Shown here: positions 20,355 through 61,079 of the stretch, one piece after another
Numbering within the stretch: the first letter of the stretch is position 1
How the letters are laid out: every line of letters begins with the position of its first letter
NCBI GenBank assembly: GCA_001786765.1
Contig: MFTH01000008.1
Coordinates: 2,939 to 66,938, forward strand
DNA from: Candidatus Nomurabacteria bacterium RIFCSPHIGHO2_01_FULL_37_25
GTDB taxonomy: Bacteria > Patescibacteriota > Minisyncoccia > Phycocordibacterales > UBA9973
Direction of reading: 5' to 3'
DNA length: 64,000 bases
The notes under the pieces: model-generated
Seen by the model: only the letters and a program-made list of their open reading frames with translations
The model's database searches: none
Told to the model about the DNA's origin: nothing
Made by a program: the position numbers and the translations under genes

Positions 20355-20379
20355 AATAAATTCAGAGTATAAAATAAAA

Positions 20380-20470
20380 AGAAAATTTTTGTCGGTACGG
20401 ATTTTTTGAAGCTTAAAAAATCCTGAAATTGGCTCGCCGTCGCTCGCCAAACCCCTTAAAAACTTTCTTT
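20380..20470. repeat. copy 1 of ~95-nt structured repeat (core GGTACGGATTTTTTGAAGCTTAAAAAATCCTGAA)
   Basis: near-identical to 55787-55886; contains palindrome GGATTTTTT...AAAAAATCC. Confidence 0.7.
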
Positions 20471-28748: not shown

Positions 28749-29213
28749 ATGGCAATAACAGAAAAAAAAGTTTCCGCCAAAGGCGGATCCGTCTCAGGCG
28801 GAAAAAATAAGAAAGAGCCTAAAGCAATTAAAGTTGCAAAAGCGCCTAAGGTTTCAAAAATTTCTCCGCAAAAGCAGAAATCTGTTCGCGCTGATACAAA
28901 AGATGCCAAAGTCATACTGCGTATTCGAGTCCGCGCTTACGAGAGTAAAATCTTGGATGCCTCAGTTAAACAAATCATAGATACGGCGGTTCGTTATGAT
29001 GCGGTGATAGTCGGACCTGTGCCTTTACCCACTGAAATAAAAAAATATACAGTCAATCGCTCTCCTTTTATTTATAAAAACACACGAGAGCAATTTGAAA
29101 TTCGTGTTCATAAAAGGTTGATTGATATCATAAACCCAAATACAAAGACTATTGAGGCTCTTACCAATTTGTCGCTTCCTTCCGGAGTAGATATTGACGT
29201 TAAAATGCTATGA
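28749..29213 (+). CDS. rpsJ: 30S ribosomal protein S10 with ~50-aa Lys/Ala-rich N-terminal extension
   Basis: C-terminal 100 aa match S10 (ILRIRVRAYESKILD...). Confidence 0.85.
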   Translation: MAITEKKVSAKGGSVSGGKNKKEPKAIKVAKAPKVSKISPQKQKSVRADTKDAKVILRIRVRAYESKILDASVKQIIDTAVRYDAVIVGPVPLPTEIKKYTVNRSPFIYKNTREQFEIRVHKRLIDIINPNTKTIEALTNLSLPSGVDIDVKML

Positions 29214-29333
29214 TCCCGTTAGAAGCCGCGATCGCAATTTAAAATATAAACAAAATATGAGATCAGATATTAGTAAAATTAATAACATAAAATGCGAGAT
29301 ATCCGAGTTGTTCGCGATCTGCTTCTAAACGGG
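29213..29333. mobile_element. palindromic MITE-like element E1 (type A), TIR TCCCGTTAGAAGC.../...GCTTCTAACGGGA, flanked by ATGA duplication
   Basis: ~22-bp terminal inverted repeat; ATGA at both flanks; downstream ATGA is the rplC start codon. Confidence 0.75.
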
Positions 29334-29942
29334 ATGAAATTCATTTTAGCAACAAAAGAAAATATGACGGAGTATTTTTCTGAAGAGGGTGTGGTTATCC
29401 CAGTAACGATACTTTCTGCCGGACCCGTGACGGTGACTAGAATTTTTGAAAAATCCAAAGATGGTTATAACTCTGTCCAAGTGGGTTTGGAAAAAAAGTC
29501 CCGACGCCCGAAGGGGTCGGGAGCCCGACCGCAAGCGTCGGGAAAAAATATCCTAAAAGAATTTAGATTAAAATCCGCCGACAAGATAGATGCAAAAAAG
29601 GGCGACAATATTGATGTTTCGGTTTTTGTTCCGGGTGATAAACTCCAAGTCTCCAGCGTATCTAAAGGCAAAGGCTTTCAGGGTGTCGTAAAGCGTCATG
29701 GTTTTAGTGGCGGTCCGCGCACTCATGGTCAAAAACATTCTGAAAGAGAGCCGGGAAGTATCGGAGGAGGACTCCGCACTCATGTTCCAAAGGGAATGAG
29801 AATGGCTGGCAGAATGGGCGGAGATCGCATTACCCAAAAGAATATCAAAGTTGTTTCTGTTGATAAAGAAAATAATATAATGCTGGTAAAAGGAGCAATC
29901 GCCGGCAAACGCGGGACTTTAGTTGAAATAATCAGCAGGTAA
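29333..29942 (+). CDS. rplC: 50S ribosomal protein L3
   Basis: L3 signature; the listed ORF start at 29292 lies inside element E1, so start set at MKFILATK. Confidence 0.9.
29503..29546. repeat. tandem GC-rich double hairpin (CCCGAC-N-GTCGGGA x2) inserted in frame in rplC
   Basis: gtcccgacgcccgaaggggtcgggagcccgaccgcaagcgtcggga; same element at 38072-38115. Confidence 0.7.
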
Positions 29943-29946
29943 TGAA

Positions 29947-30065
29947 CCCCGTTAGAAGTCGCGATCACGATTATGGCGATAATAAAGATATGAAAAAAGA
30001 TAACACAATACAAAAAAATAAAGAAAACTCTGAAAGTGTTGTATCGCGACCTACTTCTAACGGGG
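29947..30065. mobile_element. palindromic element E2 (diverged type A) between rplC and rplD
   Basis: ccccgttagaagtcgcgatcacg ... cgcgacctacttctaacgggg inverted repeat; 3' arm abuts a GTG start. Confidence 0.65.
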
Positions 30066-30727
30066 TGGAAGCAAAAATATACAATCAAAAAGGAGCTGAA
30101 ACCGGGACGATAAGTCTTCCAGAGAAAGTTTTTGCCGTCAAGTGGAAGAGTGACTTAGTGCATCAAGTTGTGCAAAGTATGAGAAGTAATAAAAGAGCAG
30201 GGACTGCCGACACCAAAGACCGTGGAGAAGTTCGTGGTGGAGGTAAAAAACCTTGGAAGCAAAAAGGTACAGGACGCGCAAGACATGGTTCAAGCCGAAG
30301 CCCTATCTGGGTTGGTGGAGGGGTAACGCACGGTCCGCTTGCTAAAAAAAATTATAAAAGAAAAATTTCAAAGAAAATGCGCGCGCAAGCTCTTTTCTCT
30401 GTTCTTTCAAAGAAGCTTAAGGATGAAGAAATTCTTTTTGTGGACACACTTTCTATGTCTTCTATCAAAACAAAAGATGCGGTAAAAGTAGTAGAGAATT
30501 TAGCGAAAGTTACTGATTGGAAAATGAAAGATTCTTCCCTGAAGCCTCGAGTGTTGACTGCGCTTTTTGGACGCAATGAAAAAACAGAAAAAAGTTTTAG
30601 AAATATTCCAGCATTAGAATTAGTATTTTTGAAGAATTTAAATCCATTTGATGTTTTAAATTATAAATATCTTTTAATAGAAAATCCGGTCGAAAGTATA
30701 AAATTTTTAGAATCTCGAGGTCAGTAA
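30065..30727 (+). CDS. rplD: 50S ribosomal protein L4 (GTG start)
   Basis: VEAKIYNQKG... matches L4 N-terminus; upstream part of the listed ORF is element E2. Confidence 0.8.
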   Translation: MEAKIYNQKGAETGTISLPEKVFAVKWKSDLVHQVVQSMRSNKRAGTADTKDRGEVRGGGKKPWKQKGTGRARHGSSRSPIWVGGGVTHGPLAKKNYKRKISKKMRAQALFSVLSKKLKDEEILFVDTLSMSSIKTKDAVKVVENLAKVTDWKMKDSSLKPRVLTALFGRNEKTEKSFRNIPALELVFLKNLNPFDVLNYKYLLIENPVESIKFLESRGQ

Positions 30728-31092: not shown

Positions 31093-31932
31093 ATGAAAAC
31101 ATATAAACCAACAAGTAAATCACGAAGACAAATGACCCATGTGCTTTACAGGGAACTTTTGACGAAGTCACAACCGACCAAGTCTCTCACTTATGGTTTT
31201 AGACGTTCTGTCGGGAGGAATAGCAGAGGACGCATCACTGTGCGACATAAAGGTGGAGGACACAAACGTCTTTATCGCGAGGTTGATTTTTTATATAATA
31301 AAAAAGAAATTCCGGCTATAATAAAATCTATCGAATATGACCCAAATCGTTCAGCTTTTATTGGGCTAGCTATTTATAAAGACGGAGAAAAGAGATATGT
31401 TATATTGCCTAAATCTATAAAGCCCGGAGACTCTTTTATTGTTTCGGAAAAGGCGCCTCTCTCAGTCGCTAATAGACTTCCTCTTAAAAATATCCCAGTC
31501 GGGACTTTTGTTTATAATATTGAAATACAACCAAATGGTGGAGCGAAGATAGGTCGTTCCGCAGGAATTTTTGCGCAAGTAGTTGCTAATGCTGATGGAT
31601 ATACAAACATTAAAATGCCTTCAACTGAAGTCCGTAAAATAAATGAAAACTGCTTCGCGTGTATCGGTACTGTTTCAAACGAAGAACATCATCTTGAAAA
31701 TTATGGTAAAGCTGGACGAAGTCGCTGGAAGGGAATACGACCGACAGTGCGTGGAACTGCGATGAACCCTGTTGACCATCCGTACGGAGGTGGAGAAGGC
31801 AGACAAGGACGCGGAACAAAACGTCCAAAGACTATGTGGGGCAAAGTAACCGGCGGAAGAAAAACCCGCAGTCCAAAGAGATACTCAAATGTCTTTATTG
31901 TTTCTCGTCGTAAGACTGGGAAGAATAAATAA
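31093..31932 (+). CDS. rplB: 50S ribosomal protein L2
   Basis: L2 signature (GRNSRGRITVRHKGGGHK...). Confidence 0.95.
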   Translation: MKTYKPTSKSRRQMTHVLYRELLTKSQPTKSLTYGFRRSVGRNSRGRITVRHKGGGHKRLYREVDFLYNKKEIPAIIKSIEYDPNRSAFIGLAIYKDGEKRYVILPKSIKPGDSFIVSEKAPLSVANRLPLKNIPVGTFVYNIEIQPNGGAKIGRSAGIFAQVVANADGYTNIKMPSTEVRKINENCFACIGTVSNEEHHLENYGKAGRSRWKGIRPTVRGTAMNPVDHPYGGGEGRQGRGTKRPKTMWGKVTGGRKTRSPKRYSNVFIVSRRKTGKNK

Positions 31933-31970: not shown

Positions 31971-32270
31971 TTGAATCTTATGAAAAAATTAACACTCAAA
32001 GAAATAAATTTACCAGTTACAATATTTAAAGAAGGCAAGAGTTATGTGGCGTATAGCCCTGCTCTTGATCTTTCTACTTGCGCTTCCACTTACAAAAAAG
32101 CGCAAACTAATTTTTCCGAGATTGTTGGAATTTTTATTGAAGAACTTGTAGAAATGGGCACACTGGATGTAGTGCTCCGAGAATTAGGCTGGCAGAAAAT
32201 AAAATCTAACTGGCAACCGCCAGTTGTTGTTTCAAATTATTTTCAACCGATGAATCTTTCGTATGCCTAA
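31971..32270 (+). CDS. hicB: HicB-family antitoxin
   Basis: 99 aa; PVTIFKEGKSYVAYSPALDLSTCAST HicB N-domain pattern; overlaps next ORF. Confidence 0.5.
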   Translation: MNLMKKLTLKEINLPVTIFKEGKSYVAYSPALDLSTCASTYKKAQTNFSEIVGIFIEELVEMGTLDVVLRELGWQKIKSNWQPPVVVSNYFQPMNLSYA

Positions 32271-32493
32271 GAAGCAAAATGTAACGAATAGGCAGTTTCA
32301 ACAATTTTTAATATATGTCGGTTGTTCTTTTAAAAGATCTAAAGGAGATCATTTTGTATATGCGCGTTCCGATTTAATACGCCCTATTATAGTTCCTAAA
32401 GATAATCCTCTACCTCAATTTATTATAAGAAATAATCTTAAATTGCTTGGAATGTCTTGGGAAGAATTTTTCAATATAATTGATAGAATATAA
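32263..32493 (+). CDS. hicA: HicA-family toxin
   Basis: 76 aa; GDHFVY...IIVPKDNPLPQFIIRNNLKLLGMSWEEF matches the HicA/YcfA core. Confidence 0.55.
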   Translation: MPKKQNVTNRQFQQFLIYVGCSFKRSKGDHFVYARSDLIRPIIVPKDNPLPQFIIRNNLKLLGMSWEEFFNIIDRI

Positions 32494-32498
32494 ATTAA

Positions 32499-32568
32499 AC
32501 CCGCAGTCCAAAGAGATACTCAAATGTCTTTATTGTTTCTCGTCGTAAGACTGGGAAGAATAAATAAG
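32499..32568 (+). repeat. 70-bp direct duplicate of the rplB 3' end (identical to 31863-31932)
   Basis: aacccgcagtccaaagagatactcaaatgtctttattgtttctcgtcgtaagactgggaagaataaataa present twice, bracketing the hicBA pair. Confidence 0.85.
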
Positions 32569-32890: not shown

Positions 32891-32903
32891 ATATAAATTA
32901 TGA

Positions 32904-33024
32904 TCCCGTTAGAGATTATTCGGTTAAAATTTAACGGTTTATATAATGTATATACTAAAGTGAAATTATTAGTTTTAATAAGAAGACACAACGGAAATCT
33001 AAAGATTTCCTATCTCTAACGGGA
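32904..33024. mobile_element. palindromic element E3 (type B) upstream of rpsS
   Basis: TCCCGTTAGAGAT ... ACGGAAATCTAAAGATTTCCTATCTCTAACGGGA; ATGA on both flanks. Confidence 0.75.
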
Positions 33025-33377
33025 TGACAAGATCAATCAAAAAAGGCGTATATGTGGATGAAAGGCTTTTAAAAAAGATTGCCGGCAAAAATCCTCTTAA
33101 TACAGGAACCATAAAAACATGGAAGAGAGCTTGTGTTATATCTCCCGATATGCTCGGTTTTACTTTTGGTGTTTATAATGGCAAGGTTCATGTGGATGTC
33201 TTTGTTACTGAAGACATGGTGGGGCACAGATTGGGAGAATTTTCTCCAACAAAGAAATTTACAAAACACGGCGGAAAGATGCAGAAAGAACTCGAACAAA
33301 AGAAAATGGAAGCTGAAATAAATGCCGCCAAAGGGGCGACTGCGGCCGCGGCTGACGCCAAGGGCAGTAAAAAGTAG
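33024..33377 (+). CDS. rpsS: 30S ribosomal protein S19 (Lys/Ala-rich C-terminal extension)
   Basis: S19 core motif. Confidence 0.9.
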
Positions 33378-33383
33378 GAATGA

Positions 33384-33504
33384 ATCCCGTTAGAAGCCAC
33401 GATCGCAATTTGAAAAGAAACAAAAATATGAAATCAAGCATTATAAAAATTAATAATATAAAATATCAGACATGCGAGTTGATCGCGATCTGCTTCTAAC
33501 GGGA
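33384..33504. mobile_element. palindromic element E4 (type A) between rpsS and rplV
   Basis: ~85% identical to E1; flanked by ATGAA/ATGAA. Confidence 0.75.
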
Positions 33505-33896
33505 TGAAAGCATTTTTAAAAAATTACAGACAGGCTCCGAGGAAAGTTCGCTTGGTTGCGAGTCTCTTAAAGGGCAAGAGTGTTGTGGAAGCCCTAGCCG
33601 AGCTTGATTTTTTAGCCAAACGCGCAGGACTGCCTATAAAAAAGCTTTTAATTTCCGCAGTTTCCAATGCAAAATCTATGGGAATTCAAACAGATAATTT
33701 ATTTATAAAAGAATTGCGAGTAGATAAAGGCATAACAATGAAAAGAATGATGCCGGCGGCTATGGGCACAGGACACAGGATAAATAAACGCACGAGCCAT
33801 TTGAATTTGTTGCTCGCAGAAAAAGTTTTAGCAGTTAAAAATTCTCCAAAAAGGACAGTCCTTAAGAGAGTTTCCCCAAGGACCGTCCTTAAGTAA
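33504..33896 (+). CDS. rplV: 50S ribosomal protein L22
   Basis: L22 signature. Confidence 0.9.
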   Translation: MKAFLKNYRQAPRKVRLVASLLKGKSVVEALAELDFLAKRAGLPIKKLLISAVSNAKSMGIQTDNLFIKELRVDKGITMKRMMPAAMGTGHRINKRTSHLNLLLAEKVLAVKNSPKRTVLKRVSPRTVLK

Positions 33897-35277: not shown

Positions 35278-35535
35278 ATGACAACAAAAATAGAAAGAAA
35301 AAATAAAAAAGGAAAAGGTAGCATCTTAAACGGGGTGGTGGTTTCAGACAAAATGGAAAAGACTGTTGTTGTAACTGTATCCAGATTTATCAAGCATCCC
35401 TTGTATGGTAAATATTATAAAGTGAGCAAAAAATACAAAGCGCATGACGAGGAAAATAAATATAAAGTGGGAGATAATATAGAGATAGTTGAGACAAAAC
35501 CAATTTCAAAAGACAAACATTTTGCCGTAATTTAA
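35278..35535 (+). CDS. rpsQ: 30S ribosomal protein S17
   Basis: S17 motif. Confidence 0.85.
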
Positions 35536-35665
35536 CGAACGAAGTGAGTATAAATTACGAGCATCCCGCCCCACTTTTAACATTAACATTTATTATCAAA
35601 TAAAAATTTTACAAACAATGAATTTTAAGTTAGTATCAAATTAATTATTAAAAGTGGAGCGGGAT
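35531..35665. mobile_element. palindromic element E5 (type C; arms CATCCCGCCCCACTTTTAA / TTAAAAGTGGAGCGGGATG)
   Basis: ~135-bp repeat, ~85% identical to E6, directly after the rpsQ stop. Confidence 0.7.
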
Positions 35666-35706
35666 GACGATTTTTATAGTCATTTCATTCCTTAAAAATC
35701 AGTCAT

Positions 35707-36078
35707 ATGATTCAAGCAGGCACATGGGTAAAAATAACAGATAACGCCGGAGGCACTGTAGGCAAAGTGTTCAAGATTTTAGGGTCTTCTAAAAAAAGAT
35801 ATGCTTCTTTGGGTGAACAAGTGATTATTGCCGTAAAGGTGGCAAGTCCCAGAAAGGGAGTTAAAAAGAAAGATGTGCATCAGGCGGTCATTGTGCGTAC
35901 CAGAGCTGCCTTTAGGAGAAAGGATGGATCTTATATTCGTTTTGATGATAATGCTGTGGTTCTTATAGAAAAAGGAAAGCTTGATCCAAAGGCTGGGCGT
36001 ATTTTCGGGCCAATTCCGAGAGAGCTCGCCGAGAAGGGATTTCAGAAAATTATTTCTTTAGCGCAGGAGGTCCTGTAA
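35707..36078 (+). CDS. rplN: 50S ribosomal protein L14
   Basis: MIQ...L14 signature. Confidence 0.9.
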   Translation: MIQAGTWVKITDNAGGTVGKVFKILGSSKKRYASLGEQVIIAVKVASPRKGVKKKDVHQAVIVRTRAAFRRKDGSYIRFDDNAVVLIEKGKLDPKAGRIFGPIPRELAEKGFQKIISLAQEVL

Positions 36079-36083
36079 ATTAA

Positions 36084-36215
36084 TGAACGGAGTGAATATA
36101 ATTTACAAGGATCCCGCCTCACTTTTAACACTAACATTCATAGATCAATTAAAATTTTACAAGCAATGAACTTTAAGTTATTATAAAAATTAAGTATTAA
36201 AAGTGGGGCGGGATG
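36084..36215. mobile_element. palindromic element E6 (type C) between rplN and rplX
   Basis: paralogue of E5. Confidence 0.7.
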
Positions 36216-36250
36216 CTCAAATTTGAAATTCGCTTCGCTCATAACAAATT

Positions 36251-36469: not shown

Positions 36470-36490
36470 ATAGAGTAAGAAGGGATGAAA

Positions 36491-36611
36491 TCCCGTTAGA
36501 GATCCTTCAGTTAAAATAATCAATAGAGTAAAAATATTATGATAAGTTTAAATAAATTATTAATAGTTATAAAAAGAACGGAAATCTAAAGATTTCCTAT
36601 CTCTAACGGGA
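36491..36611. mobile_element. palindromic element E7 (type B) between rplX and rplE
   Basis: same TIRs as E3/E8; flanked by ATGAAA/ATGAAA. Confidence 0.75.
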
Positions 36612-37186
36612 TGAAACATTTAATTATAAAAGAAAAAGAGAAAGAAGTGTTTGAAAAAATGAAAGAAATTTTTCGTTTCAAAAATACTTTTGCCTCTCCA
36701 AAAATGCAAAAGATTGTGTTAAATGTCGGCACGGGGACAGCTATAAAAAAAGATAAGAATAAAAATGACGAAATATCTCTTCGTCTAGCGAAAATTACTG
36801 GGCAAAAGCCGGTTACTAGGGGTGCTAAGCATTCAATCGCATCTTTCAAAACCAGAGCGGGTGACCCAATAGGAATTGTTGTAACACTGCGAGGAAAAAG
36901 GATGTATGCTTTTTTAGAAAAACTTATCAATGTCGCTTTGCCTCGCACGAAAGACTTTCGCGGTATCGCTCGTACGGGAGTAGATAATATAGGCAATCTC
37001 ACTATCGGTATAAAGGAGCACACTATTTTCCCAGAAACAGCTGATGAGGACATTCGGGATATCTTTGGTATGTCTATTACTTTGGTTTCTTCCGCAAAAA
37101 ATAAAAAAGAAGGCACAGCTTTCTTTGAGCTTTTAGGCGTGCCTTTGAAGAAAGAAGAGTCTGTTCGCAAGATTAAGCAAGGATAA
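36611..37186 (+). CDS. rplE: 50S ribosomal protein L5
   Basis: L5 signature. Confidence 0.9.
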   Translation: MKHLIIKEKEKEVFEKMKEIFRFKNTFASPKMQKIVLNVGTGTAIKKDKNKNDEISLRLAKITGQKPVTRGAKHSIASFKTRAGDPIGIVVTLRGKRMYAFLEKLINVALPRTKDFRGIARTGVDNIGNLTIGIKEHTIFPETADEDIRDIFGMSITLVSSAKNKKEGTAFFELLGVPLKKEESVRKIKQG

Positions 37187-37453: not shown

Positions 37454-37639
37454 ATGACAAAAACATCAGTCAAAGCTAGAGCCTTAAAGACACAGAAGTT
37501 TAGCACTCGGCAAAAAAACCGATGTTTTCGTTGTGGTCGAGGTAACGCTTTCATGAGAGATTTCGGTCTATGTCGTATTTGTTTTAGAGAATTGGCAAAC
37601 GAAGGAATGTTGCCGGGTGTTCGTAAATCAAGTTGGTAG
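37454..37639 (+). CDS. rpsZ: 30S ribosomal protein S14 type Z (zinc-binding)
   Basis: 61 aa with CxxC...CxxC. Confidence 0.85.
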
Positions 37640-37653
37640 TTCATAAAATCATT

Positions 37654-38070
37654 ATGGATTCAATTTCAAATATGATAATAATGTTAAAAAACGCAAGCTT
37701 GGCAGGCAAAGAGTCTGTATTCTTGCCATATTCTAAAATGAGAAATGCGATTGCGGAATGTTTAAAGAAAGAAGGATATGTTTCCAACATTTCCAAAAAA
37801 GTTTCTACTCGAGGCGGGTCCGTTTCAAACACAAAAAACAAACAGTCAATTCTCGAAGTAGGGTTAATGTACATTGACAAGAAGCCAAAAATTGTGGAAG
37901 TTGAGAGAATTTCTAAACAATCGAGGCGTGTTTATTTTAGAATAAAAGATATTCATACGGTTAAGAATGGTTCAGGATTACTCGTGCTTTCAACACCTAA
38001 GGGAATTTTGTCAGGTAGAGAAGCTCGCAAAGAGCAAGTCGGCGGTGAAGCATTGTTTAAAATTTGGTAG
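37654..38070 (+). CDS. rpsH: 30S ribosomal protein S8
   Basis: S8 signature; start at MDSISNM. Confidence 0.85.
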   Translation: MDSISNMIIMLKNASLAGKESVFLPYSKMRNAIAECLKKEGYVSNISKKVSTRGGSVSNTKNKQSILEVGLMYIDKKPKIVEVERISKQSRRVYFRIKDIHTVKNGSGLLVLSTPKGILSGREARKEQVGGEALFKIW

Positions 38071-48819: not shown

Positions 48820-49251
48820 TTGTTTCTGCTTCTCTCTTATTGCTATAATACTGGAATGGACAGAAGAAAGCTCATAAAAACTTTAATATACCTTATTTTT
48901 TTAATTTTTTTAGTAAATTTTTTCGCAAATAAATTCTACTGGTATTCTTCTATTTGGTATTTTGATATGATTATGCATTTTTTGGGCGGATTTTGGGTTG
49001 GGCTTGCCTATTTCTATATTTTTCTACTCCAAAATATGTCTAGTAGATTAATTTTCAAAATATTATTTTCAGTATTAATTATTGGTGTCGGCTGGGAAGT
49101 ATATGAAATCTTAGTGAACGATATTCTTGCGCAAAATCCTTTTAATTATATAGACACTGTGTCTGATTTATTTTTTGACTTATTCGGCGGTTTATGTGCT
49201 ATTCTTTATTTATGGATCCCGTTAGAGATTAAAAAGTTTAATATAAAATAA
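48820..49251 (+). CDS. hypothetical membrane protein
   Basis: 143 aa, 4 TM; its last codons overlap the 5' arm of element E8. Confidence 0.3.
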   Translation: MFLLLSYCYNTGMDRRKLIKTLIYLIFLIFLVNFFANKFYWYSSIWYFDMIMHFLGGFWVGLAYFYIFLLQNMSSRLIFKILFSVLIIGVGWEVYEILVNDILAQNPFNYIDTVSDLFFDLFGGLCAILYLWIPLEIKKFNIK

Positions 49252-49335
49252 AAAATATATTTATGATCAAATTGATTAAAATATTAATAGTAATTAAGGG
49301 TACGGAAATCTAAAGATTTCCTATCTCTAACGGGA
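49216..49335. mobile_element. palindromic element E8 (type B) upstream of the beta-CASP gene
   Basis: TIRs identical to E3/E7; ATGGA/ATGGA flanks. Confidence 0.75.
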
Positions 49336-50699
49336 TGGAAAAAATTGCCAAAATAACATTTTGTGGAGGAACTGGCTCTGTGACTGGAGCTAATTTTCTT
49401 TTGGAGGTAGATGGAAAGAAAATTTTGGTTGATTGCGGACTTATTCAGGGAACAAAATTAGCGGACGATATAAATTGGGATCCTTTTCCTTATGATTCAA
49501 GGGAAATAGATATTCTTTTTGTTACTCATGCGCATGTTGACCATTTGGGCCGTATTCCGAAACTTATTAATGAAGGATTTCATGGGAAAATATATTCCAC
49601 AGAACCTACTCGCGCATTGGCTTTTCCAATGCTTGAGGATACTGCAGGTATTTTATCTAAAAATGCAGAACTTCATTTGGATAAAATTTATACACCAGAA
49701 AGTATAAAATTAGCGCTCTCATTTTGGCAAGGATTTAAATATCACGATACAATAAAAATTACTCCAAATTTAGAAGTATCTTTTTTAGATGCTGGGCATA
49801 TATTAGGTTCAGCCATGATTAGATTCGTGTTCAATGGCAAGGTCATTCTTTTCACTGGAGACTTAGGCAATTCACCTTCACCGCTTCTTCCTGATACTGA
49901 AAGAGTTATTGATGCTGATTATTTAATTATGGAGTCCGTCTATGGTGATAGAAATCATGAGTCCAGAGATGATCGCAGGAAATTTCTGGAAGAAACAATA
50001 GAGGATAATTATAAAAGAAAAGGAACACTTATCATACCGACTTTTTCGCTAGAACGTTCCCAAGAGCTCCTCTTTGAGCTCAATGCTTTAGTAGAAAACA
50101 ATCGTATTCCCGTAATGCCTATTTTCCTCGACTCTCCTTTGGCTATTCGTTTAACTGAAGTTTTCAAACAATTTAGAAATTATTTTAATGAAACAGCTCA
50201 AAAAGCGATGTCGCATGATAAATATTTGTTTGATTTTCCTGGATTGCATAATACTTTAAAGTCTGAAGAGTCCCGAATGATAGGTAATGTGCCAAATCCT
50301 AAAATAGTTATCGCTGGAAGCGGAATGTCTACGGGCGGGCGTGTAGTGCACCATGAAAGGCATTATTTGCCAGACCCAAACAACACTCTACTTCTTACTG
50401 GATATCAAACTGCAGGCAGTCTCGGGCGCTTGATTCAAGAAGGAGTTAAGACAGTGCGTATAACGAATGAAGACGTGGTAGTTCGAGCGCATATTGTTAC
50501 AATTACAGGATACTCAGGGCATAAAGATTGTTACGGGCTGCTCGCTTTTGTGGAAGATATGAGAGATACAATTAAAAAAGTTTTTGTAGTTATGGGTGAA
50601 CCAAAGTCAGCAATGTTTCTAACACAGAAACTTAGGGATAATTTAGGCATTGACGCATCGGCTCCGGAGCGGGGGGATAGTGTAACACTAGTTTGCTAA
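49335..50699 (+). CDS. MBL-fold beta-CASP ribonuclease (RNase J/CPSF-like)
   Basis: HAHVDHLG motif, beta-CASP region. Confidence 0.65.
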   Translation: MEKIAKITFCGGTGSVTGANFLLEVDGKKILVDCGLIQGTKLADDINWDPFPYDSREIDILFVTHAHVDHLGRIPKLINEGFHGKIYSTEPTRALAFPMLEDTAGILSKNAELHLDKIYTPESIKLALSFWQGFKYHDTIKITPNLEVSFLDAGHILGSAMIRFVFNGKVILFTGDLGNSPSPLLPDTERVIDADYLIMESVYGDRNHESRDDRRKFLEETIEDNYKRKGTLIIPTFSLERSQELLFELNALVENNRIPVMPIFLDSPLAIRLTEVFKQFRNYFNETAQKAMSHDKYLFDFPGLHNTLKSEESRMIGNVPNPKIVIAGSGMSTGGRVVHHERHYLPDPNNTLLLTGYQTAGSLGRLIQEGVKTVRITNEDVVVRAHIVTITGYSGHKDCYGLLAFVEDMRDTIKKVFVVMGEPKSAMFLTQKLRDNLGIDASAPERGDSVTLVC

Positions 50700-55342: not shown

Positions 55343-55377
55343 TCTTGTGCTAGCACTGCGAAGCTTTAGCGAAGCAG

Positions 55378-55771
55378 TGGAGATGGGGGGAAATGAGCCC
55401 CCGTGCAGAAGGTTTTTGTCAAGAAGTCTACATACATAGCGCGTTTTTTGTTTTAAATTAAAAAATTCAGAAACGCGCGAAATATTTTTTAATCGAGCTT
55501 CTGTGTTTCGCCCCGACGGCGAAGCTGTGTCGGGACTATCCCGATAATATTATGCCTCTACTCATATATCGGAAGTCTATGAGAGAGACACGAGTTACGC
55601 GTAAGCGGAAACTCGAGCGAAAGCGAAGTCATTCATACTGAAGTATGGAGAGACTGCTTTCACCTTAGAAGCTAATTTTGCAATTAACATTTGAACGAAG
55701 TTTTACGAGATTACGTTCATGCTCGGTATGCGTCAATAACAAATGGCCTACTGTCTATGCCTTGCATCCCC
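55378..55771 (-). ncRNA. ssrA: tmRNA (ssrA), CCA not encoded
   Basis: minus strand: 5' GGGGATGCAAGGCATAGACAG pairs with 3' ...GGGGG-CTCATTT-CCCCCC-ATCTCCA, same acceptor pattern as B. subtilis tmRNA (GGGGACG/CGTCTCC); ~394 nt; next to smpB. Confidence 0.6.
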
Positions 55772-55786
55772 ATTTTATAAAAAATG

Positions 55787-55886
55787 TTGGAACATAACTT
55801 TTTCCGGTACGGATTTTTTGAAGCTTAAAAAATCCTGAAGTTCTCGGCTCGTCAGCCTCGAAACCCCTGCAAAAGTTATGTTCCAA
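55787..55886. repeat. copy 2 of ~95-nt structured repeat, closed by 16-bp inverted repeat TTGGAACATAACTTTT/AAAAGTTATGTTCCAA
   Basis: core identical to 20394-20430; lies between the smpB 3' end and the ssrA 5' end. Confidence 0.7.
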
Positions 55887-55897
55887 TATTTTTTTTG

Positions 55898-56344
55898 TCA
55901 ACGTTCTTTGTATTCTCTTCTTATTTCACGAAGAGTATCACGCTTTTTTAAAGTTTCACGTTTATCGTATTTTTTCTTACCCTTAACTAAAGCTATCTCT
56001 ATTTTGATTTTTCTGTTTTTATTATACACTGAAATCGGCACAATTGTCAAACTCTTGTTTTTCTCACTGCCGGCGAGTTCAAAGATTTCTTTTTTAGTTA
56101 GTAAAAGTTTTCTGTTGCGCAGTGGATCATAATCTTTTGGCGTATTTTTGACTTGATATGGCGGTATGTTGGAGTTTATCAAATATGTTTCTCCTCCCCG
56201 AACAGTAACAAAAGCTCCTTCGAGAGACATTTTTCCCCCTCTTATAGATTTTACCTCCACGCCCAAAAGCTCAATACCTGCTTCGTACTTCTCCAAGATT
56301 TCATAATTAAAATACACTTTTCTATTTTCCGCATAATGGGGCAT
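55898..56344 (-). CDS. smpB: SsrA-binding protein
   Basis: SmpB signature. Confidence 0.9.
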   Translation of the reverse strand: MPHYAENRKVYFNYEILEKYEAGIELLGVEVKSIRGGKMSLEGAFVTVRGGETYLINSNIPPYQVKNTPKDYDPLRNRKLLLTKKEIFELAGSEKNKSLTIVPISVYNKNRKIKIEIALVKGKKKYDKRETLKKRDTLREIRREYKER

Positions 56345-56418
56345 AATTTAATCTTAGCATAAATTTCCTCAGTTTTTTCTTGTTGTTTTGTGTTTTTTAT
56401 GGTACTCTCTAAAGATGG

Positions 56419-56697
56419 ATCCCGTTAGAGATTACTTATGTTTTATTACACATACATATTAAAAAGCAAGAAGGACGGTAAAATTTACACGGGACATACG
56501 CAAGATCTACGGAAGCGCCTAAATCAACACAATAAGGGTTTATCGACATATACGAAAGGCAGAGGCCCATTTGTTTTGATATATTACGAAGCGTGTTTAT
56601 TAGAAAGTAAAGCGAGGTCGAGGGAATTATACTTAAAATCGGGAATGGGTAAGCGTTATCTTAAAAGTAGATTGGGCGCTTCCTATCTCTAACGGGA
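56419..56697 (+). mobile_element. full-length palindromic element E9 carrying a GIY-YIG gene (putative autonomous parent of the type B MITEs)
   Basis: 5' arm ATCCCGTTAGAGAT and 3' arm CCTATCTCTAACGGGATG identical to E3/E7/E8; the loop is filled exactly by an 84-aa ORF. Confidence 0.75.
56438..56692 (+). CDS. GIY-YIG nuclease family protein (COG2827-like)
   Basis: YTYILKSKKDGKIYTGHTQDLRKRLNQHN GIY-YIG core; stop codon TAA lies inside the 3' TIR. Confidence 0.7.
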   Translation: MFYYTYILKSKKDGKIYTGHTQDLRKRLNQHNKGLSTYTKGRGPFVLIYYEACLLESKARSRELYLKSGMGKRYLKSRLGASYL

Positions 56698-58616
56698 TGA
56701 ATTTTAATTTTTTGAAGAAAAACAGCTTGCAAAATAAAGACAAAAAGCCAAAAGTGGAAAATACTTTTGGAAGTAGTGTTGCTGGAGCAATATTTATTTT
56801 TATGCTTATCACGGCAGTGTATTTAGTAGTGTCTGACAATGCAGAAATTATCCCAGAGATTCCGATTTCTGATTTAGCAAAAAGTGTTTCCGCTGGAGAA
56901 ATAAAAAAGATTCTTGTTGAAGGTGACAAACTCACTATCACTTTTCAAAATGATAAAATTAAAATTTCTAAAAAAGAAGTTGACGCGTCTTTATCACAGA
57001 CACTTTTTAATTATGGTGTAAGTAGCGAAGCATTAACAAAAACCGAGATAGAAATAAAAAAAGAAAGTGGTTTTGTATTTTTACTTTTAAACATTCTTCC
57101 GTTTTTATTGCCGATAATTTTTATTTTAATTTTCTTTTGGTATCTATCAAGGCAAGTTAAAGGAGCGGGTATGCAAGCGCTTTCTTTTGGTCAGTCCAAA
57201 GCGCGCATCACTGATCCAAATGACAAGAACAATAAAGTCACTTTTAAAGATGTGGCTGGATGTCGCGAGGCAAAAGAAGAATTAAAAGAAATTGTAGATT
57301 TTTTAAAAAGCCCCAAGAAATTTTTAGATATTGGCGCGCGGATTCCCAAAGGCGTTATTTTAACTGGCGCGCCGGGCACAGGAAAAACTTTACTTGCTAG
57401 AGCTGTGGCGGGGGAAGCCAGTGTGCCGTTTTTTCATTTATCTGGAAGTGAGTTTGTGGAGATGTTTGTGGGTGTAGGAGCTTCGCGCGTGCGGGACCTT
57501 TTTAAAATGGCGAAAAAAGCCGCTCCAGCGATAATATTTGTGGATGAAATAGATGCCATCGGGCGGACTCGTGGGGGTGGTTTTGGCGGAGGCAATGATG
57601 AGCGTGAACAAACATTAAATCAAATATTGGTGGAAATGGACGGTTTTGAACCGAATGATAAAGTAATAGTGATGGCGGCGACCAATAGACCGGACGTGCT
57701 TGACCCAGCTCTTATTCGCCCCGGCCGTTTTGATAGAAAAGTATTGCTTGATTTGCCTGATCGCGCTGACCGTGAAGAAATATTAAAAATTCATGCGGTC
57801 AAAAAACCATTAGCGGAAGATATTAATTTGAAGTTAATTGCCGAACGCACTCCCGGATTTTCTGGAGCTGATCTGCATTCCTTAATGAACGAAGGCGCGA
57901 TACTGGCCGCTCGCGAAAATCGCAAGAAAGTTTTCCAATTTGATTTGATTCGCTCTATTGAGAAAGTTATGTTAGGGCCAGAAAGAAAAAGCCATTTGCT
58001 TTCCAAAAAAGAAAAAGAAATTACAGCGTATCATGAAGCAGGGCACGCTTTAGTAGCTTCAGTTTTACCACACGCTGACCCAGTTCATAAAGTTTCTATT
58101 ATCTCTAGAGGAAATGCCGGAGGGTACACTTTGAAATTGCCCCTAGAAGAGAGGCGACTTCAATCTAAAAAAGAATTCATAGATGACATTGCCATGTCTC
58201 TCGGCGGTTATGTGGCAGAACAGATGATATTTGGAGATATCACCACCGGTCCTTCGAGCGACCTTTCAGCAGCGACTAATTTAGCCCGGGCAATGGTTAC
58301 ACGTTTCGGGATGTCAGACATTATTGGGCCTATTGCTTTAGTTGGAGGTGGGGGAAGACCTCAATATGGCGAGCTGATTGAAAAAGAATATTCTGAAGCG
58401 GTCTCTACAAAGGTGGATGCGGAAGTCTCAAGAATGATAGCTGATGGGTTAAAGTCCGCTAGAGATGTTCTGACTGAACATAAAAAAGCGTTCACTGCTA
58501 TTGCCAATAAACTTATTGAAGTGGAAACATTAGAGCAAGAAGAATATGAAAAAATATTAACTGCGCATGGGATAACGCTCAAGAAGAAGGAGATAATAGT
58601 ATCAACCGTTGCTTAA
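56697..58616 (+). CDS. ftsH: ATP-dependent zinc metalloprotease FtsH
   Basis: AAA Walker A/B, SRH, HEAGH zinc motif. Confidence 0.95.
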
Positions 58617-58736: not shown

Positions 58737-61079
58737 TTACTCAAAATGAAATTCACCGGCTTTTTGGTGAACTTTTTGTTTAAGGAGGGGATAGTTTGAA
58801 AGTTCAGGATTTTCTTCTATCAAACGAATAGCTTCCGCGCGAGCGGCTTCCACCATTTTAATATTTTTAATCGCTTCCATGCCGAGATCAGTGATGCCCC
58901 ATTGTTTTACGCCTCCTAGTTCTCCGGCGCCACGAAGCGACAAATCTAATTCTGCCAATTCAAAACCATTCTTGGCGGTTTTCAATGCTTTCAGGCGAGC
59001 TATCGTTTTTTCACTTTTTGCTTCAGCAAAGATATAGCAATACGCTTGATGTGAGCTTCTGATTACACGTCCGCGCAATTGATGCAGTTGAGCCAGTCCA
59101 AAACGTTCCGCGCCTTCTATTATTATGACTGTGGCATTGGGGACATTTACTCCCACCTCCACCACAGAGGTGGCGCAAAGAATATTTAAATTGCCTTTTA
59201 CAAATTCCTGCATAACTTTTTCTTTTTTTTCCTTGCTCATTTTACTGTGGAGTACACCTATTTCATATTCGTAAAAAATTTCTTTTTTGAGACGTTTAGC
59301 TTCTGAAGTTACCGCTTTCATTTCTAGCGCTCCGAGCCGAGTGTTGCCGGACTCACCACGAAAATTTTCTGCTGAAAATTTTCTCTCTTCGTCGCCGTCG
59401 CTTCTCCGAAGGGTTCGCTCGACAACACTCGGCTCTTCGCCAGCTTCAAAAATTCTCGGACAAATTACATAGAGCTGTCTGCCAGACTTTAATTCTTTTC
59501 GTATTTGTTCATAAGTTTCCTCGCGCTTATCAGGTGTAATAATTTCTGTAATTATTTGTTTTCTGCCGGCCGGCATTTCATCTAGAAGCGACAGGTCCAA
59601 GTCGCCATAAATAGTAAGCGCGAGCGTGCGGGGGATGGGAGTAGCTGTCATAGAAAGCAAATGTGGCGCATTTGTAATTCCTTTTGCGTCTTTTCTCACT
59701 AGTTTTCTTCTTTGGGTTGTGCCAAATCTATGCTGTTCATCAATAACGGCTAATGCTAAATTTTTAAATTTTACAGTTTTTTGAATAAGAGCGTGTGTGC
59801 CTACAAGGATAGATATTTCTCCGTTCATTACCCATTTTAAAAGTTGCGCGCGAGAAATTGTAGTCCAGTTTACTTTACCATCGGGGCTGATTGTTTTTGC
59901 CGGAAATTTTCGACAACCGCTTCCCGTGATGAGTCCTATATTAATCGGCAAATACTGAAAATAATTTATAAAAGATTCAAAATGTTGAGTCGCTAATATT
60001 TCTGTCGGCGCCATATAAGCCACCTGCAGACCTGCTCGCAGTGTAACACTGCTCGTTGCGGGAGGGTTATAATTATTTTTTGCCTGATTTACTACAGCAT
60101 ATGCGGCCGTCGCTGCCACGGCAGTTTTTCCGCTTCCGACATCACCCTCCAATAGTCTAGACATAGGGAAGTTTTTTGCTATATCGTTTAATATTGTTTC
60201 AATTGATTTCGTCTGTGAGTTAGTGGGCTTAAAAGGAAAACGTTTCAAGAATTCTGCCGTATCTTTTCCACTTTGTTTTATTTGGAAAGATTTATTCTTT
60301 CTGTATTCAAATTTATCATGCTGGCGTTCAAGCTGAATGCAAAAAACTTCTTCAAAAGCGAATCTTTTGCGCGCAGACTCCGCATCTTTGGCATTTTTTG
60401 GTTTATGTATCCAGATGAGCGCAGTTTTTAGCGTTGGCAGATGATACTTATCTAGTATTTCTTTTGGTATGTAATCTTCTATCGTATCTAAAAACCGAGC
60501 TTCTTTCCCGCCAGAGGCGGGTCCGCCTTTGGCGGATATAATTTTTAAGATAGTGTGATAAAACCATTTTGAAGTTATTCCTCTGGTTTCAATATAAACA
60601 GGAAAACCAAATACCTCACTCTGTTTTTTCTTGTCAAAATTAAATAAAGAATCATGTATATCAATCGGCATTGAATCAACTTTTTTAAATTCTGGGTTTG
60701 CCAGATATTTGCCTCTTTTACTTTCCATTACTTTACCTGTGAATTCTACAAATTGTCCGGAATGTATCATTTTTGCCATATAAGCCTGATTAAACCAAAA
60801 TACTTTTATTTTTCCGGTTTCGTCTATTACTTCTCCTTCAGCTCTCAAGATTTTACTTTTATATCCTCGCTTTATATCTGGACTCCAAAATTTTCCATAT
60901 ACTGTGGCATATTCTCCTGCCACCAATTGATTTATGGGTTTTATTTCACTGATATGTGAATAGCGGACAGGGAAGTGAAAAAGCAGATCTGCCACAGAGA
61001 AAAGTTTGAGTTTATGTAAAGCTTTTTTCTGATTTTTATCCAAGCGGAATTTTTCTTCGAGTTTGTCGTGAAGTTGCAT
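58737..61079 (-). CDS. recG: ATP-dependent DNA helicase RecG
   Basis: SF2 motifs (GSGKT, DEQHRFG, MTATPIPRTL), N-terminal wedge/OB region. Confidence 0.8.
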   Translation of the reverse strand: MQLHDKLEEKFRLDKNQKKALHKLKLFSVADLLFHFPVRYSHISEIKPINQLVAGEYATVYGKFWSPDIKRGYKSKILRAEGEVIDETGKIKVFWFNQAYMAKMIHSGQFVEFTGKVMESKRGKYLANPEFKKVDSMPIDIHDSLFNFDKKKQSEVFGFPVYIETRGITSKWFYHTILKIISAKGGPASGGKEARFLDTIEDYIPKEILDKYHLPTLKTALIWIHKPKNAKDAESARKRFAFEEVFCIQLERQHDKFEYRKNKSFQIKQSGKDTAEFLKRFPFKPTNSQTKSIETILNDIAKNFPMSRLLEGDVGSGKTAVAATAAYAVVNQAKNNYNPPATSSVTLRAGLQVAYMAPTEILATQHFESFINYFQYLPINIGLITGSGCRKFPAKTISPDGKVNWTTISRAQLLKWVMNGEISILVGTHALIQKTVKFKNLALAVIDEQHRFGTTQRRKLVRKDAKGITNAPHLLSMTATPIPRTLALTIYGDLDLSLLDEMPAGRKQIITEIITPDKREETYEQIRKELKSGRQLYVICPRIFEAGEEPSVVERTLRRSDGDEERKFSAENFRGESGNTRLGALEMKAVTSEAKRLKKEIFYEYEIGVLHSKMSKEKKEKVMQEFVKGNLNILCATSVVEVGVNVPNATVIIIEGAERFGLAQLHQLRGRVIRSSHQAYCYIFAEAKSEKTIARLKALKTAKNGFELAELDLSLRGAGELGGVKQWGITDLGMEAIKNIKMVEAARAEAIRLIEENPELSNYPLLKQKVHQKAGEFHFE

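Follow-up and report, generated by a model that had tools for sequence, protein, structure and literature searches.

A hairpin element family of Patescibacteria with a GIY-YIG nuclease gene in its loop and a probable transposon-like mode of spread at start codons

In a 64,000-nucleotide stretch of a Candidatus Nomurabacteria genome (contig MFTH01000008.1; the whole stretch is called the window hereafter), a small gene for a GIY-YIG nuclease fills the loop of a DNA hairpin that is inserted at the start codon of ftsH. This hairpin and its relatives probably form a selfish, transposon-like family of Patescibacteria with an autonomous, nuclease-coding form and miniature forms, and we infer that the nuclease mobilises both. 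The family displays the characteristics of transposable elements, namely terminal inverted repeats, a target duplication, filled and empty versions of the same site, and ends shared by coding and non-coding copies. The window is a Patescibacteria stretch of low GC content (36%), and the names of the nearest homologues and loci place its genome, as judged from sequence, in the Nomurabacteria/Paceibacteria type.

The coding copy occupies window positions 56419-56698, where two 14-nt arms, inverted and exact, enclose a single 84-amino-acid (aa) GIY-YIG open reading frame (ORF). Its parts are as follows (L numbers denote loci of the comparison set introduced below).

Box ending 6 nt upstream of 56415-56419: TGnTANNNT-like sequence TGGTACTCT.
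56415-56419, plus strand: ATGGA, once the start codon of ftsH and now the upstream member of the target duplication; the orthologous elements of L001 and L004 have ATGGA on both sides.
56419-56432, plus strand: 5' arm ATCCCGTTAGAGAT, an exact match, which pairs with 56685-56698 in the DNA fold.
56420: T, the first base of the element proper.
56438-56692, plus strand: GIY-YIG nuclease ORF in the element loop, 84 aa, single domain, Slx1/UPF0213-like.
56685-56698, plus strand: 3' arm ATCTCTAACGGGAT, within which lie the TAA stop and the AT of the ftsH ATG.
56697-58616, plus strand: host gene ftsH, which begins with the downstream copy of the duplication, ATGAA (56697-56701).

The gene and the arms are thus interlocked: the nuclease ATG is the sixth base past the end of the 5' arm, and the TAA stop (56690-56692) lies within the 3' arm, 4 nt ahead of the ftsH ATG. 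The arm sequence ATCCCGTTAGAGAT has eight exact matches in the window, which make up four inverted pairs (32903/33025, 36490/36612, 49216/49336, and 56419/56698); 0.38 matches were expected by chance, and eight were reached in none of 100 shuffles. The other three pairs belong to short copies with an arm spacing of 121-123 bp, termed type B below, to which the coding copy is similar over 22 nt at the 3' end (TTCCTATCTCTAACGGGATGAA, family D11) and 16 nt at the 5' end. When the long copy (289 nt) was folded as single-stranded DNA (ssDNA), its terminal arms paired (Z = -1.8). Scans for sigma-70 promoters and terminators around the coding element gave no match, and an Rfam search of the whole window at the gathering threshold returned tmRNA and tRNAs only, with no family at the elements. 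The exact arms, the position of the ORF and the domain match given next bear out what a preliminary description of this DNA had proposed, that a GIY-YIG ORF fills the loop between the arms.

The profile search suggested in that description matched the ORF to the Pfam GIY-YIG family PF01541 with 66.4 bits against a cutoff of 22.6 (E = 2.9e-18). Residues Y4/Y6, Y17, R25/R27, H31/N32, and E51 are invariant in 20 homologues, and a C-terminal tail, LKSGxGKRYLKxRL, is distinctive of the nuclease family. The nearest solved structures found with phmmer are UPF0213 proteins (BH0048, 1zg2, E = 5e-9; EF2693, 1ywl, E = 7e-5). An AlphaFold model (pLDDT 88) was likewise most similar in Foldseek to 1zg2 (BH0048; E = 7.7e-6), followed by the Slx1 nuclease domain (TM 0.6-0.72, E about 1e-3), and I-TevI and UvrC were marginal (E > 0.3). 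The group I intron endonuclease profile TIGR01453 scored 22.4 bits, below its cutoff of 56.05. By profile and predicted fold, the protein is classed as a minimal, single-domain GIY-YIG nuclease of the prokaryotic Slx1-like/UPF0213 kind, a class defined by Dunin-Horkawicz et al. (PMC1564403), and not as an I-TevI-type homing enzyme. Within the arms the GIY-YIG gene is the sole ORF, and no HUH Y1 transposase was found there. The earlier characterisation of the fold as that of a homing endonuclease and not of a classical transposase therefore stands in its second half and needs correction in its first, the fold being of the Slx1/UPF0213 rather than the I-TevI type.

The association of gene and arms is not peculiar to the window. 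The comparison set comprised 80 Patescibacteria genome loci (L001-L080; 1.2 Mb) from many Parcubacteria lineages, with 61-95% nuclease identity and 81 homologous genes in total. Sixty-seven of these genes, down to about 60% identity, are bracketed by the same kind of arms, defined as an inverted repeat of that kind of at least 11 nt, and among the remaining loci several further genes have arms that are gapped or decayed. Examination of other genomes, as advised in the preliminary description, thus answers in favor of a coding member of an element family rather than a chance neighbor of its repeats. More than 1183 relatives of the nuclease were found at E <= 1e-5; the 120 relatives listed are 83-95% identical and 83-92 aa long, mostly 84, and among the matches listed every relative with a named source is from Patescibacteria. 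At E <= 1e-3 the search returned 7438 clusters (50% identity). Several genomes hold two or three nuclease copies, at different loci. A scan for inverted CCCG...CGGG pairs recovered 62 full-length elements (about 276-277 nt) and 45 short elements (46-177 nt).

Both components of the element are conserved, each in its own manner. Variants of the arms covary between left and right (AGAGAT/ATCTCT, AGAAAT/ATTTCT, AGAGAC/GTCTCT, and GTACGAAAT/ATTTCGTAC), and the right arm is kept as DNA though it is read in two frames, ending the protein either as ...GASYL* (with TAA) or as ...KRFLSLTG* (with a TGA that overlaps the host ATGA). Single-nucleotide codon differences in the ORF are synonymous in 19684 cases and non-synonymous in 4329, and the nuclease ORF is under purifying selection.

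The elements also leave a mark on genome annotation. Some of the 84-aa nucleases (P0002, P0031, P0059, and P0078) are wrongly annotated in public records as 'excinuclease ABC subunit C', and some gene models of at least 92 aa are either called from the duplicated host ATG or fuse neighboring ORFs; the elements systematically disturb gene calls in Patescibacteria.

Mobility is evident from a comparison of orthologous sites. The filled site of L018 reads ...TATAGTCAT, ATGGA, a 118-nt element, ATGGA, AAACATCC, and the empty site of L025, with identical flanks, reads ...TATAGTCAT, ATGGA, AAACATCC. Filled as well as empty orthologues exist for no fewer than five other genes, in some cases with more than one subfamily at a given site: the start of an RNase gene carries a type B element in the window, a type A element in L001 and none in L004; an rpiB-like gene is occupied by a nuclease copy in L005 and by a hairpin of 46 nt in both L056 and L061, and its site in L027 is empty; and a leuS-like gene, dnaA and ruvX follow a pattern of the same kind. 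These filled and empty orthologous sites prove mobility with target duplication. The duplication, also postulated in the preliminary description, consists of the host start codon plus 1-3 nt (ATGA, ATGAA, ATGGA, or ATGAAA); it is 4, 5 or 6 bp long, most often 5 (ATGAA, ATGGA). In cases of disagreement between the two copies, it is usually the upstream one, now functionless, that has decayed (e.g., ATTAA versus ATGAA).

The reconstructed target is ATG, then R (A in 67%, G in 24%, T in 0%), then A (87%), with no strong upstream motif. An ATGA motif, expected earlier as part of the hairpin substrate, is accordingly present but belongs to the host start region ATG-R-A rather than to a hairpin substrate as such. 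A few copies have duplications without ATG (ACTAA, ATAA, TAA, and TTGA), which indicates that the duplication derives from the target and is not brought in by the element. A model resembling IS608, with the right-hand ATGRA as part of the element, was rejected, for both flanking copies covary with the site (ATGCAA/ATGCAA, ACTAA/ACTAA, ATAA/ATAA) and a single copy is present at the empty site. In four tandem arrangements of elements, each has one shared copy of the duplication, as expected if every insertion regenerates its target. A search for excision footprints (tandem ATGNN-ATGNN at gene starts) gave 24 candidates, mostly internal to ORFs. Stop codons are not claimed as a second class of target, with two clear cases only.

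Insertion is also oriented. In 57 of the 62 full-length elements a co-oriented ORF of at least 60 aa begins exactly at the right end, and in none does an antisense one. Short elements are slightly asymmetric, and the arm that begins with CT is proximal to the host ATG in 19 and distal in 1. Because the short copies have nothing to express, this bias points to strand-specific insertion at an asymmetric target, with selection as an alternative cause.

The window contains six short copies of the family and two further hairpin repeats, all on the plus strand.

29210-29337, plus strand: type A short copy with arms TCCCGTTAGAAGCCGCGATCGC / GCGATCTGCTTCTAAACGGG, located where the rpsJ stop and the rplC start overlap in ATGA.
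29942-30069, plus strand: type A short copy between rplC and rplD, with ATGAA upstream and GTGGA (the rplD GTG start) downstream.
32900-33027, plus strand: type B short copy at the rpsS start (33024); the element spans 32904-33023 and is flanked by ATGA duplications.
33380-33508, plus strand: type A short copy between rpsS and rplV, ATGAA duplication.
35563-35665, plus strand: type C hairpin repeat ATCCCGCCCCACTTTTAA...TTAAAAGTGGAGCGGGAT between rpsQ and rplN; family membership uncertain.
36111-36214, plus strand: second type C hairpin repeat, between rplN and rplX; family membership uncertain.
36485-36616, plus strand: type B short copy at the rplE start (36611); the element spans 36491-36610 and is flanked by ATGAAA duplications.
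49212-49339, plus strand: type B short copy where a beta-CASP RNase gene starts (49335); the element spans 49217-49334 and is flanked by ATGGA duplications.

The layout of the copies in the window is invariably ATG(N1-3), TCCCG...CGGG, ATG(N1-3), and the second ATG starts a real gene. The genes with an element at their start are rplC, rplD, rpsS, rplV, rplE, the beta-CASP RNase gene, and ftsH, and five of the copies sit at cistron junctions of the S10/spc ribosomal-protein operon. At the junction of rpsJ and rplC the stop/start overlap is split by the element, such that the upstream ATGA provides the TGA of rpsJ and the downstream ATGA the ATG of rplC. In the rpsS copy an ORF from the upstream ATG runs through the element to a TAA 4 nt before the rpsS ATG; in the rplV copy the upstream ORF also reads through, to end 4 nt ahead of the rplV ATG. 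All six short copies fold as ssDNA with paired terminal arms (Z from -3.7 to -5.5). The three type A copies have their outer 10 nt (TCCCGTTAGA/TCTAACGGGA) in common with the coding copy, followed by a longer, GC-rich stem.

The type C hairpins share with the GIY-YIG elements the termini ATCCCG/CGGGAT only, show no clear duplication, and abut no start codon. Their arms read ATCCCGCC(C/T)CACTTTTAA...TTAAAAGTGG(A/G)GCGGGAT, and each hairpin lies in a copy of a repeat of about 190 nt (82% identical; D3/I1) at 35527-35720 and 36075-36250.

Upstream of the copy at the RNase gene, the ORF 48820-49251 ends inside the element (...LYLW-IPLEIKKFNIK*); the insertion at 49217 replaced the C-terminal tail of the encoded protein. 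The L001 orthologue of this ORF has a 77-nt element at its own start codon (L001 4635-4711).

The preliminary description regarded the short copies as internal-deletion derivatives of the long one. This holds for one short element, L051 7460-7577, which retains the start of the nuclease ORF (ATGTTTTAT), and finds no counterpart elsewhere: the type B copies of the window have 16 and 22 terminal nt in common with the coding copy and nothing else, and no similarity was seen in the AT-rich interiors of short elements outside L051. An origin by internal deletion is therefore plausible, being documented once, and the type A copies and the perfect hairpins of 46-48 nt may have another origin. A search of the 1.2 Mb for a larger composite element or a DDE transposase with the same arms, up to 6 kb, found none, and unpaired arm matches there are mostly chance matches with one mismatch.

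The sequence context of the targets bears on how inserted genes could be translated. In the window and L001-L080, Shine-Dalgarno-like motifs are not enriched before starts (9-15%, versus 12.5% at random positions). A TANNNT box (often TGnTANNNT; a looser definition of our own) that ends 5-9 nt upstream is present at 34% of ordinary starts, 59% of insertion sites (36/61), and 10.5% of random positions (Fisher p = 2e-4). These figures suggest that a large share of mRNAs in these Patescibacteria is leaderless, and the enrichment of the box implies that many targets are probably the 5'-terminal AUGs of leaderless mRNAs. Among 38 full copies, 9 have an upstream ATG that shares the reading frame of the nuclease, and an ORF from the upstream ATG reads through to the TAA of the arm in 8 of 22 short copies, versus 2.8 expected. 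Since the old AUG now heads the nuclease gene or a short ORF, the host gene would be reachable only by reinitiation, which fits both the excess of read-through ORFs and a rigid stop/start junction, either TAA-CGGG-ATG or a TGA that overlaps the ATGA.

The closest parallel in architecture is a system described in 2025, in which a single-domain GIY-YIG nuclease is accompanied by cognate flanking hairpins (Ssn/NTS; PMC11893778), and the 'unusual mobility system' envisaged in the preliminary description is to that extent less unprecedented. Ssn nucleases bind their hairpin only in ssDNA and cut one strand a few nt 5' of it; ssnA is flanked by small hairpin repeats with the core ATTCCCGCG...CGCGGGAAT, which number in the hundreds; and the arrangement NTS-ssnA-NTS was noted to look like an insertion sequence and was compared with REP/RAYT (Chenal et al., Nat Commun 2025; PMC11893778). 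The likeness extends to a single GIY-YIG domain (about 85-95 aa in Ssn/NTS, cd10448; 84 aa here, within the bound of 150 aa used for the comparison), to bracketing of the gene by inverted hairpin repeats that are also dispersed elsewhere in the genome, and to a hairpin core TCCCG...CGGGA; it is a likeness of architecture and repeats. In contrast to the two separate small hairpins of Ssn, the gene here lies in a single hairpin whose arms pair across it. The 4-6 bp duplication, the targeting of ATGRA and starts, the fixed orientation, the filled and empty alleles, and the stop/start juxtaposition are unreported for Ssn; the Ssn paper contains no target duplication, insertion polymorphism, start-codon association, or Patescibacteria (PMC11893778).

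A tblastn search of plasmids returned distant GIY-YIG genes only (36-48% identity). The homologue on Sinorhizobium meliloti pSymB (L082 1300-1900; 40% identity) has separate CTCATCCCTGTG...CACAGGGATGAG hairpins on both sides, and this arrangement is Ssn/SRM-like. The composite repeat that flanks it opens with the hairpin CTCATCCCTGTGCTCGTCACAGGGATGAG, whose CATCCC...GGGATG termini are common with the Patescibacteria arms.

Taken together with the Ssn precedent, a simple model can be proposed for the transposon-like family. The element is a DNA hairpin with outer arms TCCCGTTAGAG...CTCTAACGGG around a loop. In the autonomous form of about 277 bp the loop holds one gene, for a single-domain, Slx1/UPF0213/Ssn-like GIY-YIG nuclease of 84-86 aa; the miniature forms of 46-177 bp consist of arms only and would presumably be mobilised in trans. 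By analogy with the Ssn nucleases, the nuclease would recognise the folded arms. Each strand presents 5'-(ATGRA)T-CCCGTTAGAG or 5'-(TYCAT)-CCCGTTAGAG, and a nick would be made on each about 5 nt 5' of CCCG, a position that coincides with the outer borders of the duplication. Since a GIY-YIG hydrolase cannot join DNA, copying-in would have to be finished by host replication or repair, and an annealing- or fill-in-based step would fit the variable duplication of 4-6 bp. After insertion, the old host start is the upstream ATG, and the downstream copy serves as its replacement; the nuclease would be expressed from the hijacked start, often the 5' AUG of a leaderless mRNA, and ribosomes would be returned to the host gene by termination-reinitiation, which would make insertions bearable even between ribosomal-protein genes. 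That the nuclease catalyses the movement is an argument from analogy.

Several observations weigh against this interpretation. GIY-YIG nucleases hydrolyse DNA, and we know of no strand transfer by them; cutting by this GIY-YIG protein and a joining activity are postulates of the model. About 14 of the 81 homologues lack clean arms, the duplication is not constant in length, and a blastn-short comparison of short-element interiors with full-length elements gave no match at E <= 0.01; save in L051, the interiors bear no relation to the gene. The SRM consensus published for the Ssn hairpins, HGTCWYN(0-2)YYVSBRHN(0-5)WNVSBRGN(0-2)RNCYNB, has no match in the window on either strand. The window contains 395 ATGRA sites, and the location at start codons could owe much to purifying selection rather than to targeting. 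The excess of read-through ORFs rests on related, non-independent copies. The ftsH insertion common to the window, L001 and L004 may reflect vertical inheritance; at this site FtsH is 86-89% and the nuclease 93-95% identical, and horizontal transfer, considered on account of the conservation of the nuclease, is unsupported by these values.

Patescibacteria depend on natural transformation. The nuclease could serve a domesticated host system of the Ssn/NTS type, in which it cuts hairpin-tagged ssDNA, as in natural transformation, the hairpins being tags and their spread a by-product or the work of another mechanism. Ssn, likewise a single-domain GIY-YIG nuclease flanked by cognate hairpins, modulates transformation (PMC11893778), and the strong purifying selection on a very conserved nuclease and the sharing of the ftsH-site copy by three related genomes would suit such a role. 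We nevertheless consider it unlikely as the explanation of the elements: the gene is multicopy within genomes and occupies differing loci between them, it lies inside the repeat and is bounded by the target duplication, presence/absence polymorphism and tandem insertions occur, and a host gene has no need to occupy the start codons of other genes. The two interpretations are compatible and do not exclude one another.

Less credible still is a free-standing homing endonuclease, comparable to T4 Seg/Mob, that would cut empty double-stranded ATGRA starts and be copied by homologous repair, the short hairpins being unrelated MITEs (miniature transposable elements with inverted repeats) that it had invaded in the loop. 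The GIY-YIG fold is a known homing-endonuclease fold, and the occupation of identical gene starts in diverged genomes and the weak TIGR01453 match (22.4 bits) could be read in this way. That score is, however, far under the cutoff of 56, there is no DNA-binding domain, and the fold is nearer to UPF0213 and Slx1 (E = 7.7e-6 and about 1e-3) than to I-TevI (0.3). Homing makes no target duplications and does not scatter a gene over many unrelated loci per genome; here arms and ORF are interlocked, with the stop codon and C-terminus within the arm, and short copies agree with the coding ones in target, duplication, and orientation. The elements are placed precisely at S10/spc cistron junctions in sense orientation and fold stably, and some keep a read-through ORF that ends 4 nt before the next start, all of which would suit cis-regulatory hairpins of the host (acting in RNA processing, as translational couplers or as attenuators) with the GIY-YIG gene as an incidental passenger. 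This we hold to be very improbable, given that the recurrence of the gene in the loop at 67 of 81 loci argues that it is not incidental, that no Rfam family covers the elements, that close relatives differ in whether an element is present and one site can hold different subfamilies, that target duplications and tandem copies occur, and that the interiors are unconserved.

The transposon-like family has partial likenesses to other known systems. With REPIN/REP sequences and RAYT (an IS200/IS605-related HUH Y1 enzyme) it shares short, non-autonomous hairpin repeats and a small gene flanked by them, and recognition of a single-stranded hairpin with strand or orientation specificity would be expected in both; the protein here is, however, a GIY-YIG hydrolase and not a HUH tyrosine transposase, IS200/IS605 elements insert 3' of a fixed tetra- or pentanucleotide without the target duplication seen here, and RAYT genes are usually single-copy and vertically inherited, whereas the nuclease gene is multicopy and inside the mobile unit. 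Like MITEs of DDE transposons (Correia, IS630/IS5-derived), the short copies are 50-180 bp long, with terminal inverted repeats, a short duplication, a specific target, and a larger coding relative, but there is no DDE transposase, the sole ORF between the ends is an 84-aa nuclease domain, and the target is a start codon. I-TevI, SegA-G, and I-BmoI have the same GIY-YIG fold, are selfish, and insert beside or between genes without destroying them; these proteins are larger (about 200-270 aa, including a DNA-binding domain and a linker, versus 84 aa) and home by recombination to one allelic site without duplication or terminal repeats, in contrast to the many loci with a 4-6 bp duplication and 14-nt arms here.

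By sequence and fold, the UPF0213/Slx1-like proteins (COG2827; BH0048, EF2693, YhbQ, YazA) are the nearest relatives, being minimal and stand-alone, without a C-terminal Asn module, and the LKSGxGKRYLKxRL tail sets the present family apart from them. Slx1 is a structure-specific nuclease (of branches, flaps, and hairpin junctions). UPF0213 genes are generally regarded as single-copy host genes, and we know of no description of terminal repeats or mobility for them; neither is mentioned in PMC1564403. In rRNA genes of the candidate phyla radiation (CPR), GIY-YIG ORFs have been found in insertions that belong to neither class of intron (group I or group II) and whose spread was judged not to be by homing (PMC11270868). 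These insertions come from the same phylum and may belong to the same family, but they are sited in rRNA genes, and no element was found in an rRNA gene at the 12 loci checked here.

The window holds other repeats and inserts. A perfect direct repeat of 71 bp (31862-31932 and 32497-32567) duplicates the 3' end of rplB and brackets a 565-bp insert in the S10 operon, between rplB and rpsS. The insert has two small overlapping ORFs (31971-32270 and 32263-32493), of which the second is HicA-toxin-like (PF07927, 24.5 bits, slightly under the cutoff of 27), and resembles a toxin-antitoxin cassette whose insertion produced a long target duplication. A repeat of about 45 nt (GCCAAAGGCGGATCCGTCTCAGGCGG-like; D6/I2) at 28764-28810, 37795-37841, and, inverted, 60498-60544 may be another small insertion tolerated in frame; the first copy lies in the N-terminal coding region of rpsJ (peptide KGGSVSGGK) and the second in the ORF 37633-38070, probably for ribosomal protein S8 (peptide RGGSVSNTK). 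A further direct repeat, of 87 nt (D5; GGTACGGATTTTTTGAAGCTTAAAAAATCC...; 77% identical), is found at 20379-20465 and 55791-55877, its second copy between smpB (55898-56344) and the minus-strand tmRNA gene (55375-55771), just outside the tmRNA 5' end.

The combination of a hairpin repeat and a single-domain GIY-YIG nuclease is of a kind already known, a functional analogue of REPIN/RAYT and MITE/transposase pairs. What is new is the placement of the gene in the loop, demonstrable duplication and mobility, orientation-specific targeting of ATG-R-A, and the apparent preservation of host translation; literature searches for a prior account in Patescibacteria/CPR, or of start-codon-targeting GIY-YIG elements, found none. 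We judge the chances to be even that the family represents a type of prokaryotic transposable element not recognised before. Such an element would have an 84-aa Slx1/Ssn-like GIY-YIG nuclease, encoded in its own hairpin loop, as its only protein; it would integrate in one orientation at the ATG-R-A of start codons, often 5' AUGs of leaderless mRNAs, with a 5-bp duplication, use the host start to express the nuclease, and give ribosomes back to the host gene by termination-reinitiation. In that case the elements would supply the missing evidence that Ssn-type pairs of nuclease and hairpin are, or descend from, genuine mobile elements, and perhaps that the same is true of 'orphan' CGTC-tagged REPs, moved by a hydrolytic nuclease with host replication or repair and no transposase. 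For such repeats, which according to Di Nocera et al. 'lack a dedicated transposase' (PMC3733652), the family would offer a candidate mobiliser, and it would account for the evolutionary origin of the Ssn ssDNA nucleases and for their natural function. The arms and the nuclease are also a candidate sequence- and structure-specific pair for cutting ssDNA. If the nuclease drives movement, transposition would occur without transposase chemistry, and, at about 277 bp with one 84-residue protein, the autonomous form would to our knowledge be among the smallest autonomous mobile elements reported. For Patescibacteria, the start-codon target and the juxtaposition of stop and start would provide a parasite with a route into very compact genomes, the ribosomal operon included, that leaves essential genes unsilenced.

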